Sequence record: PZ171032.1 | Length of the DNA: 64,000 nucleotides | Source of the DNA: a phage | Direction: 5' to 3' (one strand) | Shown: in pieces, positions 43,168 to 64,000 of the stretch | Layout: the number at the start of each line of letters is the position of its first letter | How positions within the stretch are numbered: position 1 is the first letter of the stretch | The notes under the pieces: generated by a model | What the model was told of the DNA's origin: nothing | Database searches by the model: none | Seen by the model: the letters and a program-made list of their open reading frames with translations, nothing else | Translations under genes and position numbers: made by a program

Positions 43168-44079
43168 TTATTTCCCGTTAACTCTGTTGTAGTTTCCCTG
43201 CTCAGATGGGACTATGGTAGAGGGTCTTCCATATTCCTGATAATACCAATCAGCAGCTGATTGGGTAACACCGTTTTCATCTGTCCACATCATGGATTTA
43301 TATGGCTGCCACTCCTCTGCAGCATTTGTGGATGCAGTGTCTGCAAATGCCCCTGTGTCCCTCTTGTTACCTACGTTACTACCATTCTTACAGTCGTTGA
43401 CAGCACCTTTTTGTTGGGTCTTGCCTACTTTCTTGGGATTGCTGTATACAGTTGCATTAACAACCTTGTTCAAGTAGAATGTGCGGAACTCTGTAAGTTC
43501 TACATCAAAAACCATTGCAGCACCTTCGCCAACAGACTTGCTGGCAGAAAGACTGGTTATGATATAGTTCTCAAGAAGTCTCTCCTCGGTAACCAAAGAA
43601 ACCAACTGTCGCTTATTAATGATCTCAGTCAAAGCCTCCAGTGCAGCACTTGGTCGCATAGATGCTGCGGGGTTTTTAGAGTCAGTATTCCTATCGATGT
43701 AGTTTTGCTCATAGATTATATGTGGAGATGTATTTACCCTACCAGTAAAAGAAAATACACCATCTTTAATTACAGCGTGGTCTGACAGGGTAGATTTATC
43801 TTCCACCGCAAACCCAGTCTTATCAACAGAATGTTTGAAAGAGTAATTCTCAACCTGATCGAAGATAATGGCAAGATCGTTAGTAAAGTTTTTACCCTTC
43901 ATCTCTATGTTGCGACCGCCATAGTTAAGACCGCTGACAAACATGGTGTACTTTACATCGCTTTCGGTTTGCTGCTCTGCCTTTTCAGCCTTTGGAGATT
44001 TAACCTCTCGAGGCTTGTACAGGTCTTTTTCATCAACTATATTACTTTGCATAACCTCTCCAGGACACTCCGATACCAT
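43168..44079 (-). CDS. distal tail / baseplate-associated protein (hypothetical)
   Basis: 303 aa; first gene after tape measure. Confidence 0.4.
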   Translation of the reverse strand: MVSECPGEVMQSNIVDEKDLYKPREVKSPKAEKAEQQTESDVKYTMFVSGLNYGGRNIEMKGKNFTNDLAIIFDQVENYSFKHSVDKTGFAVEDKSTLSDHAVIKDGVFSFTGRVNTSPHIIYEQNYIDRNTDSKNPAASMRPSAALEALTEIINKRQLVSLVTEERLLENYIITSLSASKSVGEGAAMVFDVELTEFRTFYLNKVVNATVYSNPKKVGKTQQKGAVNDCKNGSNVGNKRDTGAFADTASTNAAEEWQPYKSMMWTDENGVTQSAADWYYQEYGRPSTIVPSEQGNYNRVNGK

Positions 44080-44156: not shown

Positions 44157-46493
44157 TTACCAAAGGTCGGTAGACATGAAGTTGATATCTTTATTGTTCT
44201 CCCACTCCAGTTTTGCATCAAATATTTTGTTAAACTCACCCTCATCTATTGAAATCGTGATTTTCCCATCACTGATTTCTAAAGGTAACATTTCCATAGT
44301 TCTTAATTGAGAAGCAAAACCAGGGCCACCTGGTAACGGAAGAGTCCCGCCCGGCAAGGTGTCCAAAGGATTAACAAACCCGTTACCTCCTGATATGATA
44401 TCTTTGCGAATCATATCGCTGATAGTATCCAGCTGCTGATTTCTTTCACTCAACGGGTTGTAACGGTCATTAAACAATTCCCCGGCGCTTAGTATTGTAC
44501 CGATAATGCCTAACTTACCGAGCAGACCAACTTTGCCACCAGGTGTCTTGAGGCCACCTCCCCCCTTTCCTGCCGGAGCGCCACCACCAGATCCTTCTGT
44601 AGTAGCGGCACCCGCTGCTCCAGCTGCACCCCTTAGAGAGTTAAGGAATTTAAAGGTTTTTACAAGCATGGATGCCATGACAAAACCTTTTGTAAGGGCG
44701 TTCACTACCAGCATGATGGCAGCAGCAAACCCTGCCCATTTAGCATAGCTAAAGGTGTCATGAAGCTCTTCAGAATATTCCTTCGTCTTGGCTGTTATGA
44801 ATCCCCATTTAATCCCCCATTCAAGGAAAAACATGCGGATCTTGACTATAGTGTTGTTTAGTTCACCAACTACCCAGTTAAGGCCTCTCACAAATCCACT
44901 AACAAAATCACCAGAGGCATCCCACACAAATTGCAGAGTCTCGCCAGTGCGGATTAGTGTATAATAGAACTCTGTCAGTTCGTCAGACCAACGGGTGAAC
45001 AGTTTCTGACGAGTCAGTTCGATGAAGGTTTTCAGTCTGTTTTCTGCCAGCACGTTAGACTTCTGCATTCTTTCATAGCCAGCTGCAGATGCCTCGTTCA
45101 TGTACTTAGCCACATACTTCATGATCTTGGCTGTTTTAACCTCACCTTTCTTCATCATGTCCATGAACTGATCCATGGATAGTTCAGAAAGACCAAAAGC
45201 CTCTTTAGTGGCCTTGATAAAAGGTTCGTATGCACCCGGCAATGCTTCAGCAAGTTGTTGCTTCAGTTCTTCGGACATTACTTGTCCTTTCCCAAGCATC
45301 TGTTGGATTGCCATAATACCGCGCTGGTATTTTACCTCATCAGCACCATAAGCAGCAGCATACTGGGAGTATGCAGAAAACAGCTCATGCACTTCCTGAT
45401 TTGTCATCTGGTTTTTGGCGTTTACCGACATCTGGGCGTAACCTTGAAGACCAGATTTGAGATCAAAACCAAGACGCATAGCCTCTTGCTGGACAAACGC
45501 AACCTCACTGTTGGCTTTGTTTGGATCTCCAGTAACAGCAGTAAGAGCAGCACTTGCGCCCTCCATCATGTGACCGGATCTGTTAACCGCAGCAAATCCA
45601 GAAAAAGCTGTATACGCAGCTGTTGCATTAATAACAGATCTACGTAAGTCTCTCATGGCATCGCCTAGTGTAAGCGTTTGGCTGGTGGCACTTTTAAATC
45701 CAGACTGCAGCGCTGACAGGTGGGCGTTAAAGGTTGACTTTTTCATTTCCCCGCGAGCAAACCTGGACTCTAACTCTGAGTATCCTGGCAAGCTTCCACG
45801 GAATCCTGCCCCATACTTGGCAGAGAGTCTTATCGCAGAGTTGTAGAGGTGGGTTCTTCTTGCCTCACGATCCGACATAAGCCTATTATCCATACCAGCT
45901 TTACTGTCTCTTCTTAGCTGTCTATGATAACGATTCATAGCGGCTGTCTGGGCTTTCACAAGATTAGGATCTGAAGCCACCCCACCCATGTTCGGGTTGC
46001 CTGGAATATATCTGAAAGACTTGGCGTTAGCAAGAACTCTTGCCTTAGGTGCCTTATAACCCCCATAGGATACTGGTGCAGATTTGGCAGCTTTTTTAGC
46101 CTCTTTAGCTTGCTGCTGGTAGAACTTACGCATCCTAGCCATCTCTGGGTTTTTGGCGGTAAGATTGCCTACAGCTTGCCTACGTCTTGCATTCTCCCTA
46201 CGCTCTATTGCAGCCTTTACTGCAGCCTCTTTCTTGGCCTGAGCAACGCTCTCCCTGTGCAGTTTAGCATTTGCCTGAGATTGCTGTCTGGCAACCCTCT
46301 GCATTGTCTGCTGGGTTTTAACAGCTACCGCCTGCCATCTACTCATGGGGTTGGCTGAGTTAAAATCCTCGCCCAGTTTCCTGAACTCCCTCCCAATACT
46401 GCGAATTTTCTCTACAGCTTTTTTGTAGGAGGAGTTCTCTATCTCAAAGCCAATCTTGTTGACTGTTGTGGCAACTATTTTGTTTGTAGCCAT
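44157..46493 (-). CDS. tail tape measure protein
   Basis: 778 aa; Ala/Gln/Lys-rich helical N-terminal region, Gly-rich hydrophobic C-terminal region (GAAGAAGAATTEGSGGGAPAGKGGGG); lies downstream of chaperone pair with frameshift site. Confidence 0.8.
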   Translation of the reverse strand: MATNKIVATTVNKIGFEIENSSYKKAVEKIRSIGREFRKLGEDFNSANPMSRWQAVAVKTQQTMQRVARQQSQANAKLHRESVAQAKKEAAVKAAIERRENARRRQAVGNLTAKNPEMARMRKFYQQQAKEAKKAAKSAPVSYGGYKAPKARVLANAKSFRYIPGNPNMGGVASDPNLVKAQTAAMNRYHRQLRRDSKAGMDNRLMSDREARRTHLYNSAIRLSAKYGAGFRGSLPGYSELESRFARGEMKKSTFNAHLSALQSGFKSATSQTLTLGDAMRDLRRSVINATAAYTAFSGFAAVNRSGHMMEGASAALTAVTGDPNKANSEVAFVQQEAMRLGFDLKSGLQGYAQMSVNAKNQMTNQEVHELFSAYSQYAAAYGADEVKYQRGIMAIQQMLGKGQVMSEELKQQLAEALPGAYEPFIKATKEAFGLSELSMDQFMDMMKKGEVKTAKIMKYVAKYMNEASAAGYERMQKSNVLAENRLKTFIELTRQKLFTRWSDELTEFYYTLIRTGETLQFVWDASGDFVSGFVRGLNWVVGELNNTIVKIRMFFLEWGIKWGFITAKTKEYSEELHDTFSYAKWAGFAAAIMLVVNALTKGFVMASMLVKTFKFLNSLRGAAGAAGAATTEGSGGGAPAGKGGGGLKTPGGKVGLLGKLGIIGTILSAGELFNDRYNPLSERNQQLDTISDMIRKDIISGGNGFVNPLDTLPGGTLPLPGGPGFASQLRTMEMLPLEISDGKITISIDEGEFNKIFDAKLEWENNKDINFMSTDLW

Positions 46494-50362: not shown

Positions 50363-50827
50363 TTATTTTTGCTGTCCGATTTTAAAGGTTGCAGATTCAA
50401 GCAGCACATCGTAATGCCGCATAGCTTCGTTGAAGCCCTTCTCTTGTGCCCACTGCTCACTAACCGTAGGATTACTAAACTGCCCAGCCTCAATAACAAA
50501 CTGGATAGCTTTGGCCCCTGTATCCCCCATCTGCCTGAGAATGGCCTCTGCACTTGACCCTCTAGCCATAGCTCTCAACAATTTTTCTGTTAAGGTCTGC
50601 AGTTGAGTGCTGTGAAATGCAAAGGCTGTCTCCATAAAATTGCGAACAGGCAGCCCGTTCCAACCGAAGTTGTGAATAGCTGCCAATGTCGCCATATTTA
50701 AGCCCGAAGGGTGAGGTTCGTCATAAAAGCCGTAGGTTATTGTTTTGCTCTCAAGTTTCACAAGTTCTTTGTAAAAGCGATCTAAACGCTTTAGGTTGAA
50801 CCTTGTTTGACATTTAACCTTTAGCAT
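50363..50827 (-). CDS. head-tail connector/adaptor protein (putative)
   Basis: 154 aa; position. Confidence 0.4.
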   Translation of the reverse strand: MLKVKCQTRFNLKRLDRFYKELVKLESKTITYGFYDEPHPSGLNMATLAAIHNFGWNGLPVRNFMETAFAFHSTQLQTLTEKLLRAMARGSSAEAILRQMGDTGAKAIQFVIEAGQFSNPTVSEQWAQEKGFNEAMRHYDVLLESATFKIGQQK

Positions 50828-60611: not shown

Positions 60612-60688
60612 TGGTCTCCACGGAGTGATTCGAACACTCGACCTCCTGATCCCAAATCAGGCGCTCTACCAAGCTGAGCTACGCGGAG
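60612..60688 (-). tRNA. tRNA-Pro (anticodon UGG)
   Basis: Hand fold: acceptor CTCCGCG/CGTGGAG, D-arm TAGCTCAGCTTGGTAGAGC, anticodon stem CCTGA/TCAGG with loop UUUGGGA, T-arm GAGTG-TTCGAAT-CACTC, encoded CCA. Confidence 0.75.
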
Positions 60689-60699
60689 TATTTATTATT

Positions 60700-60774
60700 T
60701 GGTGGCCCTGGGTGGAATTGAACCACCGTCTGGCGATTATGAGTCGCTTGCTTGAACCTTCCAGCTACAGGGCC
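60700..60774 (-). tRNA. tRNA-Met (anticodon CAU; could be Ile-lysidine type)
   Basis: Acceptor GGCCCTG/CAGGGCC, anticodon loop CUCAUAA, T-arm GGTGG-TTCAATT-CCACC, encoded CCA. Confidence 0.65.
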
Positions 60775-60775
60775 A

Positions 60776-60851
60776 TGGTGCTGATGGCAGGACTTGAACC
60801 TGCAACCTATTGATTACAAATCAATTGCACTACCAATTGTGCTACATCAGC
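60776..60851 (-). tRNA. tRNA-Thr (anticodon UGU)
   Basis: Acceptor GCTGATG/CATCAGC, D-arm GCAC-AATTGGTA-GTGC, anticodon stem ATTGA/TCAAT with loop UUUGUAA, T-arm GCAGG-TTCAAGT-CCTGC, CCA encoded; 1-nt spacer to tRNA-Met. Confidence 0.75.
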
Positions 60852-60858
60852 AAAAAGG

Positions 60859-60955
60859 TGCTAGGTGATGGAATCGAACCACCTATGTATTCAACGACTA
60901 CCTCGTCTATTTTCAGGATTAAAAATCCTCGCCCTTGCCAAAGGGCTTACCTAGC
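60859..60955 (-). tRNA. atypical tRNA-like element (about 97 nt; anticodon loop UUUUUAA, so Lys-UUU if functional; possible pseudo-tRNA)
   Basis: Good acceptor (GCTAGGT/ACCTAGC) and T-arm (GGTGG-TTCGATT-CCATC) but about 30-nt variable region with internal hairpin and no encoded CCA. Confidence 0.35.
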
Positions 60956-61053
60956 TCAGTATGTTGACCATGTTGCTAGTCGGCGATGACGACTGTAACA
61001 TTTGATAATCCGGTTCTGCTTCCGGCTTTCGCTTAATTACAAGGTCAACAATA

Positions 61054-61144
61054 TGGCTGAGGGTAATGGAATCGAACCATCATCAAGTCATCCTCAACGG
61101 GACGGTTTTCAAGACCGCTTGAGCACCATTGCTCCCTACCCTCA
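61054..61144 (-). tRNA. tRNA-Ser (anticodon UGA), long variable arm
   Basis: Acceptor TGAGGGT/ACCCTCA, anticodon stem GCGGT/ACCGT with loop CUUGAAA, long variable arm, T-arm GATGG-TTCGATT-CCATT, encoded CCA. Confidence 0.6.
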
Positions 61145-61260
61145 TTTATAAACAATACTGATAATGACACTGATTTTCGAGCAGTTAGTGACTAGTATAA
61201 ACGACGATAAATATCAATGCCATTATCTGTATGATTTATGCATTTAAAAAAATATAAATT

Positions 61261-61348
61261 TGGTGGTGAGTGATGGAGTCGAACCACCCGAATCGCAATT
61301 ATAACAGATTTACAGTCTGCCCCGCTACCCCTACGGAATTAACTCACC
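61261..61348 (-). tRNA. tRNA-Tyr (anticodon GUA), long variable arm, irregular D-region
   Basis: Anticodon arm CAGACUGUAAAUCUG matches recalled E. coli tRNA-Tyr; acceptor GGTGAGT/ACTCACC, T-arm GGTGG-TTCGACT-CCATC, CCA encoded; D-arm pairing non-canonical. Confidence 0.55.
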
Positions 61349-61478
61349 TAAATACTAATATTTAAATTCTTTTTAAAATAGCTAGTGTTCTCACCACTAA
61401 CTATGAGGTATCGGTAAAGTGGTTACCGCCACTTGCCGAAGATTTACTCTGCTAAAGTAAGCTACATTAAAAAGAACT

Positions 61479-61553
61479 TGGCACCCCGTACTGGACTCGA
61501 ACCAGTGTCAACGGCTTAGAAGGCCGCTGCTTTATCCACTAAGCTAACAGGGC
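61479..61553 (-). tRNA. tRNA-Arg (anticodon UCU)
   Basis: Acceptor GCCCTGT/ACGGGGT (two G-U pairs), D-arm GCTT-AGTGGATA-AAGC, anticodon stem GCGGC/GCCGT with loop CUUCUAA, T-arm ACTGG-TTCGAGT-CCAGT, CCA encoded. Confidence 0.7.
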
Positions 61554-61649: not shown

Positions 61650-61990
61650 TTAGCTATTGCTAACAGGCTGTATTTCTGTAGTAAATGGCATAAAAGGTGC
61701 TGGTTTTTCAGCCTCTTCCACTACCACCTCTTCCTCTTCACCAAACATCTCATCATATTCTTCCTGCATTCGGTCTGCCTTATCAAGAACATACTCTGCA
61801 ATGCTTTGACGAATATTTTGTTTGGTTTTCGGGTCCAACATCAGCTCTCTTAAAACTTTGTGAGCTTCTGGAACCATCGCTATAAAAGATTCCTTCATAT
61901 CAAGGATGTTCTTCTCTAACTGAATGGCGTTGGACTCCTCTTTCAGAGGTCTGCCTCTACGGCGACGCTTTTTAGTTGTATCCGCCATGT
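61650..61990 (-). CDS. small basic DNA-binding-like protein (possible terminase small subunit; speculative)
   Basis: ORF track 61650..62108; start set at MADTTKKRRRRGRPLK with GGAGG RBS; basic N-terminus, acidic C-terminus; lies upstream (in transcription order) of tRNAs, spanins and terL. Confidence 0.4.
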
Positions 61991-62334
61991 TTCCTCCATT
62001 ATCACGTGATAGGTGGATTTTATCATAGCAAATACTGATTGTCAAGTTCGCCGCAGGGTGGTATTCCCTGCGACTTGTCCAGCGTCCTGGACCAGCAAGA
62101 CCCAACAAGTGGGTTACCAGAGGCCTATTACCAGCGCTTCGGCTCGACCTTGTTACAGGTTGGCTGGGGTCACATCGTCATGTGCTGGCTGCCCCTACCA
62201 TTTTAAGTGTGGTGCACTATCAAGCCCTCTAAGGGGAACTCAGTCTTCTCCGAACCCTGTTTCAAAGCATCCAGAGATAAAGCCATCAAATTCATCTTTA
62301 AATTGGATATTCATCATGATACACGAAAACAACC

Positions 62335-62577
62335 TCATTGTAAAGCACAAATAAATAAAACATACTTAATTTGTTTGTTATCAGGCTCAGGGTAGAAGTA
62401 GAAGATCTTGCTATCACCGATCTGAACACCACCATCCCAACAGCATAGCCCATAACCTGTATTCATACAAGCTAAGTCGTTGGCAAAATCTATTGCATCA
62501 TCCAGTGCACGAAATTCACCTTCATCTTCTAAATAATCCTCATTCATGGAACGAAAAACGAGCTTAACCTTAAACAT
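62335..62577 (-). CDS. hypothetical protein
   Basis: 80-aa ORF on block strand. Confidence 0.4.
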   Translation of the reverse strand: MFKVKLVFRSMNEDYLEDEGEFRALDDAIDFANDLACMNTGYGLCCWDGGVQIGDSKIFYFYPEPDNKQIKYVLFICALQ

Positions 62578-62653
62578 AGCATTACCTGTAGACCTCGTAA
62601 GTTAAAATTGCATCACATCATATTGCAGATCTTATCAGGTAACACTATTTTTG

Positions 62654-62863
62654 TCAACAGATTCCGGCCTTATCCTTCCTGTCTGCGTATTCTTTAATCG
62701 CAACCTCATCTGCATTAGTGACCAGGTCTTCAAAGTAACTCTCAAGCTCCTCGTCAATGTCAGGAGACCAGCTCTTTTTCCTGTCAGTGTGAATTGCAGA
62801 CTTGTTGAACTTATTACAGTTCTTTGCTACCGGGTTGTTCATTAAGCGCTCCTCAGCGTTCAT
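62654..62863 (-). CDS. hypothetical protein
   Basis: 69-aa ORF; start overlaps stop of upstream gene. Confidence 0.4.
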   Translation of the reverse strand: MNAEERLMNNPVAKNCNKFNKSAIHTDRKKSWSPDIDEELESYFEDLVTNADEVAIKEYADRKDKAGIC

Positions 62864-63431
62864 AGTAAATTTTATTTAACATTACCTCATCTTTTGCAGA
62901 AAGAATACCGAGATATGCATCACCGAATCTACCTGCAACAACCTCTGCATGATACATCACTTCGTTAATATCGTCAAGAGTGATAACTGGATGACCGTAT
63001 CTCTCTGAGTATTGTCTCAGAGTGCGATGTAGAGAGTCATCATCATAGGCAGACTTTTTAATATCACAAACACGACGAATAGCCTTGATGTCGAAAAACC
63101 CTGTACGATACCAACCAAGAAAAAGGTTTCGTGCAGTGTCAACATCTACATCAATACCATCAAGAACCTTATCTACAAGATAGCTGTCATCCTTTGGACC
63201 TGCTTCCTTAGTGCGAATGTAGTTGCCATCTTTTCCAGGTGACAGCTCCTTCTCATCACCAACCTGCATGCCATCATTTGGCGGTGTTAACCACTTATCC
63301 GGATGCTTACGATCACGAGCGTTAGAATGATTACGCTGGAAACCTGGCTTCCACTTGAAAGTTTTCTCCATCTGTTCTTCATTCTGATAACGTTTTGCAA
63401 TCTTTTCACGGTCATCTTTGCGTGGACTCAT
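62853..63431 (-). CDS. hypothetical protein (first gene of the leftward block)
   Basis: 192 aa; GAGGAGG RBS; preceded by ~490 bp of non-coding sequence containing GC-rich structured segment and repeats. Confidence 0.5.
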   Translation of the reverse strand: MSPRKDDREKIAKRYQNEEQMEKTFKWKPGFQRNHSNARDRKHPDKWLTPPNDGMQVGDEKELSPGKDGNYIRTKEAGPKDDSYLVDKVLDGIDVDVDTARNLFLGWYRTGFFDIKAIRRVCDIKKSAYDDDSLHRTLRQYSERYGHPVITLDDINEVMYHAEVVAGRFGDAYLGILSAKDEVMLNKIYYER

Positions 63432-63918
63432 AGCTGCCTCCTCTTCAAGTTATAGAAAAACTTACTGTATCGCTTTGTAACGAGCTTTTCTATCAAACTG
63501 GTGCGATTGCCTTACTTGGTATAGTTTATATGGCTGTGGAGCGATTTAGGGGCCTCATTGTCCGTTTCCACACATAAACTTTATCCAAACTCGCGCGGGA
63601 GGCTCTCAACCGACTCCTTACGGCGCTGGCAAGCTTTCGTCGGTGGTCCACATTAGTGCTCGGCCTTTGGCCTGCGCTATCGCTTCGCTCCCACACATGT
63701 TAACAGACCTGCATGTGTGCACTATGGAGGCCCGGCATCTCGCCCCTCGTAGGCGAGTGCCAATGAAGGGCCGACACTACCTATAGTAAGTAATAAATTT
63801 AAAACATGGTACTTAGGATCTAGTATATTCTACATAAGTTAAGTATATGTACTTTAGTACCATAAGTACTAGATCTTTTATTTTTTTATTATTTAGTTAT
63901 TTTAGTTATATTCTTTAT

Positions 63919-64000
63919 GTGTCCGTATCACGGACAGTAGTGTCCGTATCACGGACAGTAGTGTCCGTATCACGGACAGTAGTGTCCGTATCACGGACAG
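63919..64000. repeat. tandem direct repeats of a 21-bp unit GTGTCCGTATCACGGACAGTA (3.9 copies, truncated by window end)
   Basis: Exact copies at 63919-63939, 63940-63960, 63961-63981 and a partial fourth; each unit has inverted repeat GTCCGT-atc-ACGGAC. Confidence 0.9.

Follow-up and report, generated by a model that had tools for sequence, protein, structure and literature searches.

A folded element beside the iterons of rV5-like coliphages and of 13-kb Escherichia coli plasmids, a candidate accessory module of a replication origin

The stretch of DNA analysed here, which we call the window, comprises 64,000 nucleotides (nt) of sequence record PZ171032.1 and belongs to an rV5-like coliphage of the genus Vequintavirus. 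Close to its right-hand end lies a GC-rich, non-coding segment that is 99.3% identical to Escherichia phage rV5/V5 and that is covered to at least 80% in 119 records of our phage collection (blastn), every one of them a Vequintavirus, and the 119 Vequintavirus records all contain it. Phages of the rV5 type are widely used as candidates for therapy and biocontrol, and their replication origin has never been defined; the rV5 paper left it undefined (PMC3606486). We describe here a folded element within this segment, its recurrence next to different iterons in phages and in a family of small E. coli plasmids, and the part it may play in replication.

The initial annotation of this DNA had drawn the segment at 63,440-63,790, between the gene at 62,853-63,431 and a tandem array of 21-base-pair (bp) repeats starting at 63,919. 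Both this position and the enrichment in GC are borne out, the GC content being 0.54-0.555 at 63,500-63,799, higher than in the flanks on the left (0.41-0.44) and on the right (0.335-0.365); the bounds are narrower, however, and the element proper extends over ~270 nt, from about 63,513 to 63,783. A highly conserved stretch of ~80 nt (63,432-63,512), in which a promoter scan called no sigma-70 site, separates it from gene 62,853-63,431. On the other side, an AT-rich stretch of ~130 bp (63,791-63,918, GC ~0.33), a candidate unwinding region, lies between the element and the repeats, and the repeats themselves, or iterons, have the 21-bp unit GTGTCCGTATCACGGACAGTA and fill 63,919-64,000 with 4 exact copies, the last of them clipped by the window end. 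The gene at 62,853-63,431 had been taken for the first of the leftward genes, which is wrong, as the leftward block goes on past the window end in rV5. In rV5 and Murica it continues with the 21-bp repeats, gp075, a metallophosphoesterase and a kinase-like ATPase, and transcription and GC skew switch only ~1.6 kb further on. The minimum of the cumulative GC skew is found ~1.5 kb away.

The anatomy of the element was worked out by aligning 16 phage variants and the plasmids introduced below; all parts are given on the minus strand, which is the sense strand for the flanking genes. HP1 (63,729-63,772) is a long imperfect hairpin with the arms GGCCC/GGCA/CUCGCC and GGCGAG/UGCC/GGGCC around the loop UACGAGG, and its conserved 5' foot GUAGUGUC reaches ~63,783; a pairing of the HP1 flanks was rejected, the flanks being hypervariable and their pairing not consistently kept. 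A hypervariable junction (63,720-63,728) leads to the hairpin HP2 (63,692-63,719), CACACAUG-N12-CAUGUGUG, which has a short form in this phage; in most relatives it is 18 nt longer and has a longer stem, and the indel is bounded by the direct repeat GTGCAYACA. The core, ~106 nt long (63,592-63,697), starts with UGUGUGGGAG, ends with CUCCCGCGCG, and includes, besides the hairpin P5, an inner hairpin domain and the conserved run AAUGUGGACC. A closing helix of the core, P1, is predicted between UGUGUGGGAG and CUCCCGCGCG and includes two invariant U.G pairs; its 5' arm overlaps the 3' arm of HP2, and the two pairings are mutually exclusive. In P5 (63,609-63,644) the arms ACCGAC (63,639-63,644) and GUCGGU (63,609-63,614) enclose a 24-nt loop, GAAAGCUUGCCAGCGCCGUAAGGA (63,615-63,638; consensus GAAAGCUUGCCAGCGCCG(U/G)AAGGA), that is invariant across all phages and type-A plasmids save for one U/G position. 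The single-stranded runs on either side of the hairpin are likewise unchanged between phages and type-A plasmids. An inner helix within the P5 loop, CUUGC/GUAAG, was proposed by RNAalifold and discarded, as it is broken in 4 of 11 sequences. The 3' hairpin HP3 (63,514-63,590) holds a second UGUGUGG (63,568-63,574) and the motif GCCCCUAAAU, which reappears downstream of the plasmid cores, and is the least conserved part, at 76-86% identity. The hairpins singled out from the sequence in the initial annotation were all located, GGCC-ttt-GGCC at 63,662-63,672, CACACATG-N12-CATGTGTG at 63,692-63,719 and CTCGCC-N7-GGCGAG at 63,739-63,757.

Folding energies were compared with those of shuffled sequences. 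With RNA parameters, the z-scores on the minus and plus strands are -1.64 and -2.09 for the whole segment, -1.65 and -0.06 for the core, and -2.2 and -3.2 for HP1; with DNA parameters the core reaches only +0.18 (minus) and +0.82 (plus), while HP1 has a z-score of -3.0 on the minus strand. The minimum free energy (MFE) of HP1 is -28.1 kcal/mol. The description of the segment as full of stable hairpins is therefore apt for HP1, which stands out, and not for the whole segment or the core, whose values are modest and barely go beyond what composition gives.

Comparison with homologues bears on the fold more directly, and as the initial annotation had expected of a structured element, the structure is kept in related genomes, the stems of both P5 and HP1 being maintained by compensatory changes. 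Between rV5 and one of the plasmids, L006, 10 of 10 stem substitutions are compensatory: the P5 helix ACCGAC/GUCGGU of rV5 reads GCUGCC/GGCAGC in L006, with 3 pairs changed on both sides, and in HP1 GGCA/UGCC is replaced by GUCA/UGAC and CUCGCC/GGCGAG by CUCUCC/GGAGAG, with 1 pair changed on both sides in each. Across 8 distinct sequences of HP1 all cells are paired and 2 pairs covary. A distant relative, L090, adds a third P5 helix, GACGGC/GCCGUC; with the three lineages P5 is 100% paired, 4 of its 6 pairs covary, and its covariation score was reached by none of 500 shuffles. In a control where the pairing partners were slid by 1-3 columns, pairing in P5 and HP1 collapsed to 18-55%.

The kind of pairs that vary leads us to favour the minus strand as the one that folds. 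The outer pair of P5 is A-U in most phages, G.U in Aya and IMGVR, and G-C in the plasmids and L090; G.U pairs are likewise found in P1 of LL12 and IMGVR and in HP2 of SYGMH1, and in HP3 a clade of five phages has three one-sided changes that all preserve pairing (U.G to C-G, U-A to U.G, and A-U to G.U). On the plus strand, the equivalents of these G.U changes in P5, P1, HP2 and HP3 are A.C mismatches. RNAalifold energies are also lower on the minus strand, at -38.4 vs -32.3 kcal/mol for the core and -9.4 vs -6.5 kcal/mol for HP3. The minus strand is the sense of local transcription and would also be the lagging-strand template of a fork departing from the iterons, and with both roles on one strand, the strand assignment cannot separate RNA from unwound DNA. 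Since the stems vary in a compensatory manner while the loop stays fixed, the opposite of what a double-stranded protein site would show, we argue from these alignments that the element acts single-stranded, either as transcript or as unwound strand, and not as a plain double-stranded binding site.

Conservation is higher in the core and HP1 than in the neighbouring genes. Aya and rV5 are 96-98% identical over core and HP1 vs 88-91% over neighbouring coding sequences (CDS), and a divergent Vequintavirus from IMG/VR, L003 (IMGVR_UViG_3300010279_000001), is 90-95% identical to rV5 over core and HP1 vs 83% over the gp073 CDS, with HP1 at 95-100% identity even there. A covariance model of the core, R1, finds a single copy per genome, scoring 134 bits in the window and 85-94 bits in the type-A plasmids. 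A set of 59 exact 18-mer matches in unrelated taxa (among 185,579 genomes) was dismissed as chance, none of them exceeding 21 bits with R1. By tblastn, gp075 and the downstream gp073 are confined to the genus Vequintavirus, and this search with the two proteins turned up no more distant phage homologues outside it. As a side observation, 18 records titled 'Campylobacter phage' (MG0656xx) are Vequintaviruses by sequence.

When 5,426 complete E. coli genomes were searched with sensitive blastn settings, only plasmids matched; with no chromosomal match among them, a host origin of the segment was rejected. Two blocks of ~60 nt, 84-85% identical, lie in unannotated DNA of circular E. coli plasmids of 13.3-13.7 kb. 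The plasmid family as a whole ranges from 13.2 to 14.3 kb and includes L006 (NZ_CP020521.1), L007, L008, L009, L074, L076 and L087-L089; the 39.6-kb record NZ_CP043822.1 is a trimer of the 13-kb unit. Another record filed as an E. coli plasmid, the 137.6-kb CP057073.1, is an rV5-like phage genome. Among the proteins encoded by the 13-kb plasmids are a major capsid protein of their own, a Dit-like tail-tube initiator (50-52% identity to that of Vequintavirus, 43-47% to its counterparts in other Vequintavirinae), a tail-completion protein that shares 44% identity with a protein of the window, a tape-measure protein, a weakly HTH_36/O-like Rep and an HTH_7 protein. Amino-acid identities between plasmid and phage proteins span 25-52%, and the window homologues of plasmid genes lie at 43,366-43,980, 44,763-46,481 and 50,399-50,821; the plasmids have no recognisable terminase, portal, sheath or polymerase. 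The capsid family forms 18 clusters at 82% identity or more, one of them with 441 members, and its named members are all from E. coli, on contigs of 13.4-14.3 kb. In the literature we found no description of such plasmids or satellites, of the element, or of a Vequintavirus origin or transcriptomes. Their gene content suggests that the 13-kb plasmids are probably undescribed satellites of rV5-like phages.

Apart from the core and HP1, the phage and the type-A plasmids (those of the NZ_CP020521 kind) have no non-coding DNA in common, and among the plasmids HP1 is found in L006 only. On one strand, the plasmid order is iterons, AT-rich repeat region, variable hairpin cassettes and core; the cassettes form arrays of different hairpins, each ending in UGUGUGGG and some preceded by a boxA-like CGCUCUUUG. 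In type-B plasmids, the WTMG01000048 kind (L087:2,450-2,560, and L088 and L089), the core keeps the end motifs UGUGUGGG ... CCGCGCG and also AAUGUGGA, its P5 hairpin is a different one, UCCGGAU-N18-AUCCGGA, and both HP1 and the 24-nt loop are absent. No counterpart of the type-B core was found in the phage collection, and this core may point to a different helper.

The heptamer TGTGTGG, which ends each origin-side hairpin cassette, is frequent in the plasmids, with 14-20 copies per 13-kb plasmid vs 1.4 expected, and also occurs within coding regions in differing frames. The phage window has 24 copies vs 11 expected, among them those at 63,568-63,574 and 63,691-63,697, with no strand bias relative to genes. 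That it might be a replichore-polarised or primase motif was considered and dropped, since the polarity seen in L006 did not recur on the left arm in other plasmids and the phage shows no strand bias. HP1 and the plasmid core have T7-type primase sites (GTGTC/GGGTC/TGGTC) at their feet; this was noticed post hoc, applies to only 3 of 17 TGTGTGG motifs, and is not used as evidence.

In rV5 the iterons are followed by gp075, a helix-turn-helix (HTH) protein that matches PHROG 12838 'replication initiation protein' and Pfam HTH_36. The same order of iterons, AT-rich stretch and element, with the folding strand running 5' to 3' away from the iterons, is found in five contexts. The rV5-type phages combine gp075, the iterons GTGTCCGTATCACGGACAGTA (4 copies in the window) and the full element. 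The divergent phage L003 (L003:1,819-2,640) has a 143-amino-acid (aa) HTH protein, a weak match to the 'replication initiation' PHROGs of gp075, and iterons GATACATATTTGCATCAGAT; at the DNA level no similarity to rV5 is detectable in its initiator, iterons and AT-rich stretch, while HP1, HP2, core, HP3 and gp073 follow in their rV5 positions and the flanking phosphoesterase gene is conserved. The L003 locus thus looks like a cassette swap of origin specificity. Type-A plasmids have their HTH_36/O-like Rep, six iterons CGGAAATATTTACCGGGGT and the core; type-B plasmids have an HTH_36 Rep (a weak Pfam hit), a repeat array of their own and the same outline. The fifth context is the distant pair L090/L091 (L091:3,116-4,561 comes from Logan DRR174583 contig), where a 224-aa open reading frame (ORF) of no family stands with four iterons AAGGGCCAAATAATGGCCC at 33-bp spacing, and a probable core lies ~370 nt downstream, on the gene strand despite rearranged neighbouring genes. 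The gp073 homologue and DNA ligase of L090/L091 are 50% and 71% identical to Vequintavirus proteins, and the origin DNA of L091 had no match in the phage collection. AT-rich stretches of unrelated sequence hold the same position in L003, L091 and the plasmids.

Based on this, our preferred reading, which we hold with only slightly better than even confidence, takes the segment for an accessory module of an iteron-type replication origin, folded and strand-specific. The order and polarity are constant beside five sets of iterons, and core and HP1 persist where initiator, iterons and AT-rich DNA have been replaced, which argues for a functional part of the origin; having survived these swaps, the element should work with machinery common to these replicons and not with the initiator. 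The element probably serves as a signal that controls or primes replication, one of an as yet uncatalogued kind. Of the roles offered in the initial annotation, a site at an origin is thus the best supported.

We speculate that the initiator (gp075 in rV5) would open the AT-rich stretch, whereupon the exposed minus-sense strand could fold and present the 24-nt loop and the conserved single-stranded runs (AAUGUGGACC and GAGAG) to a component that all these replicons share. The likeliest partner would be the phage replisome, for instance gp230, which is listed as a T7 gp4-like primase-helicase in rV5 (PMC3606486). On the unwound minus strand, the element might then act like a single-strand initiation (ssi) site and signal loading or priming; alternatively, the same fold could form in a read-through transcript from gp075 and act as pre-primer or R-loop former. 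The 13-kb plasmids would carry the element so that the replication machinery of the helper accepts them. The step from adjoining the iterons to recruiting the primase-helicase is one that we infer. More tentatively still, and with rather low confidence, one may picture the core as a replisome 'adapter' that sets helper specificity, a folded handle of RNA or single-stranded DNA that any iteron origin would need in order to recruit an rV5-type primase-helicase; plasmid satellites would copy this handle to hijack replication, and the type-A and type-B loops would match different helpers.

Several observations weigh against an origin module of this kind. Folding energies hardly beat those of shuffled sequences, and those of the core do not beat them at all with DNA parameters. 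Covariation is drawn from few independent lineages (phage, plasmid and L090), and P1 remains a prediction because it never varies. The core-like element of L090 is probably genuine, yet its match is weak (18.6 bits, E ~0.003 by a rough calibration), and its MFE structure recovers P5 and not P1. The type-B plasmids have a different P5 and no phage counterpart, and the 24-nt loop is therefore not universally required. No consensus sites for DnaA or IHF were found. That the iterons mark the replication origin is itself something that we infer from the iterons, the HTH_36 initiator and the GC skew, and in the related phages the adjacency of element and iterons could in part be inherited synteny.

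The preferred reading has to be weighed against the view that there is nothing special about the segment, i.e. that it holds a small gene or is a functionless GC-rich remnant. The only candidate gene is ORF78/gp074 of the rV5 record (63,526-63,696, minus strand, 56 aa, GTG start), the longest ORF on that strand, so that the claim of no ORF of 60 aa or more holds; it is annotated in rV5 and ECML-10 and left uncalled by most annotators, and chance frames and hairpins are to be expected in GC-rich DNA, in keeping with the modest fold z-scores. The variable alignment columns of gp074 are spread over the codon positions as 15/19/17, with no third-position excess, the frame is truncated or shifted in three of the 16 phages (Alma, IMGVR and Phage206) and shifted by a 1-nt indel among the plasmids, and no PHROG or Pfam match was found; we therefore judge it not to be a gene. 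A functionless remnant would in addition not be more conserved than the neighbouring CDS, as core and HP1 are in Aya and L003, nor keep its stems by compensatory changes, and we regard this view as very improbable. A structured RNA with a role outside replication is a better contender, although we consider it rather unlikely: the element would be a free-standing or processed non-coding RNA, or a cis-regulatory RNA (for antitermination, processing or stability) in the read-through from gp075 to gp073, and a helper protein that binds the loop would explain why phage and plasmids share it. The strand that folds is the sense strand for the flanking genes, the z-score of the core is -1.65 with RNA vs +0.18 with DNA parameters, no terminator stands between gp075 and the element (0 terminator-like sites in 62,000-64,000), the plasmid cassettes end in UGUGUGGG with a boxA-like CGCUCUUUG ahead of some, HP2 and P1 compete for one UGUGUG run in a switch-like manner, and the type-A and type-B loops resemble specificity loops. 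Rfam 15, however, matched only tRNAs in the whole window at gathering thresholds, and nothing inside 63,440-63,735 even at E<=10; the sole overlapping match, a sub-threshold rli43 (63,736-63,971, 25.7 bits vs a threshold of 100), mostly spans the AT-rich stretch and the repeats, and the plasmid regions gave no match either. Likenesses noted by eye to 5S rRNA, domain IV of 4.5S RNA, the type I-E CRISPR repeat of E. coli and the lambda/rrn boxA were set aside as short, not kept in both lineages and not recognised by the Rfam models. The promoter scan found no sigma-70-like promoter belonging to the element, and it has no terminator of its own; complementarity to the conserved loop in the window and the plasmids was limited to chance 10-mers, and persistence beside five iteron arrays after rearrangement is left unexplained by such an RNA. 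The more specific proposal of a 5' leader for gene 62,853-63,431 is unlikely because the conserved ~80 nt intervene and because the plasmids have strong sigma-70 promoters downstream of the element; the promoters and conserved upstream stretches of the downstream genes come after it.

The segment might instead be the packaging (pac) recognition region of a headful phage, copied by the plasmids for the terminase of the helper, which was also among the roles first offered. Vequintaviruses are circularly permuted headful packagers for which no pac site has been described (PMC8407724, PMC13211470, PMC3606486). The idea is attractive because a satellite must share the packaging signal of its helper and core and HP1 are the sole non-coding DNA common to phage and type-A plasmids; the plasmids have no recognisable terminase, the HP1-HP2 junction is hypervariable and indel-prone as a cut site might be, and the 39.6-kb trimer would make a plausible headful. 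It is disfavoured by the stems, which differ in sequence between helper and plasmid and stay complementary while the loops are fixed, whereas a duplex site would conserve the contacted arms in both, and by the type-B plasmids, which are without HP1 and the 24-nt loop. The large-terminase gene is moreover ~3.9 kb away, no small-terminase gene was identified beside the element, and the constant link to iterons would have no explanation; we thus think a pac site improbable, and a fold serving as the RNA part of a packaging or assembly machinery, by analogy with the phi29 packaging RNA, would be more remote.

Some further features of the neighbourhood deserve mention. A second GC-rich (0.50-0.535) non-coding gap at 62,110-62,330, between the counterparts of rV5 ORF75 and ORF74, was examined as a possible related element and rejected, its fold z-score being -1.4 and the gap having no match in E. 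coli genomes and not being common to the plasmids. The 112-aa product of rV5 ORF74 (61,650-61,988) has an acidic tail and an N-terminus that resembles an AT-hook (KKRRRRGRP); a sigma-70 promoter close to consensus, TTGACA-17-TAAAAT (62,045-62,017), stands ahead of the gene, and similar consensus-like promoters occur downstream of the plasmid cores. In the tRNA cluster at 60,612-61,553, ARAGORN calls a 99-nt tRNA-like gene with a 4-base anticodon (60,857-60,955) and a tRNA-Ser at 61,054-61,144 that was missed by Rfam, while a tRNA at 61,264-61,348 was matched by Rfam and missed by ARAGORN. Just past the window end (L001:6,074-8,082; rV5 66,268-67,714) are an AAA_33 kinase-like ATPase, a metallophosphoesterase and a divergent T4 Rnl1-like RNA ligase, which, near the tRNA cluster and beside the putative origin, resemble an RNA-repair set.

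If the preferred reading of an origin module is right, rV5-like phages would have an origin architecture made up of the gp075 initiator, 21-bp iterons, an AT-rich stretch and a folded module, and the separate exchange of element and initiator would make for an unusual, modular design. What we find most interesting is that the element is common to the phage and a probable new family of plasmid satellites, linking the phage to 13-kb E. coli plasmids that are common and apparently undescribed. If these are satellites of a virulent myovirus, the shared element would be the first candidate for the point where the parasite plugs into its helper.

The ssi sites and primosome assembly sites (pas), such as ssiA/ssiB of RSF1010/IncQ and the G4-type and phiX174-type sites of F, R6K and ColE1, are hairpins recognised by primase or primosome. 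Like them, the present element is hairpin-forming and strand-specific, and it conserves its structure plus a few fixed bases. It adjoins iterons and AT-rich DNA, and its folding strand would be the one exposed once the putative origin is opened; folding as a single strand is seen here in the compensatory changes of P5 and HP1 and in G.U/G.T pairs that fit the minus strand only. Unlike ssi sites, it has no sequence similarity to them (blastn of the phage collection gave Vequintavirus only), it is larger, at ~270 nt with a multi-hairpin core of 106 nt, its priming role is a candidate one, and its core is no stabler than shuffled sequences with DNA parameters. In ColE1 RNA II, T4 oriF/oriG and the T7 primary origin, a structured transcript runs through or beside the origin and its fold is needed for initiation. 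These resemble our element in a fold kept by compensatory changes, and rV5 has a T7 gp4-like primase-helicase; they need no iterons or Rep, however, unlike the setting found here. A ColE1-type pre-primer would moreover start from an upstream promoter of its own, whereas here the promoter scan found none at the right distance and no antisense partner was found, so that read-through from gp075 is the only possible source.

Among the iteron origins, oriV of RK2 and of RSF1010 has the same order of iterons, AT-rich stretch and GC-rich block, and the weakly O-like/HTH_36 initiators recall the lambda origin with its O protein. The GC-rich blocks of RK2 and RSF1010 are short (tens of bp) and are not known to depend on folding; the one described here is conserved and folded, and as a module it is exchanged separately from the initiator. 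As to the plasmids, the sharing of a short non-coding element between a small replicon and a large helper is in line with the cos site of P4, the mimicry of origin and pac by the phage-inducible chromosomal island-like elements (PLE) with ICP1, and the pac/cos sites of Staphylococcus aureus pathogenicity islands (SaPI), as is the distant relationship of putative satellite and helper proteins (25-52% aa identity). The differences are that the helper would be a virulent 137-kb myovirus, that the putative satellite exists as a free plasmid and has its own genes for capsid, tape measure and tail initiator, and that the shared site is a folded element and not a cos/pac duplex, the relation of helper and satellite itself being a putative one. 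Taken by analogy, the element resembles the ssi sites and the GC-rich blocks beside iteron origins (RSF1010, RK2, F and R6K), or else ColE1 RNA II, as a likeness and not as a demonstrated membership; it is new as a family of sequence and structure, and by kind it is a variant of origin-side folded signals.

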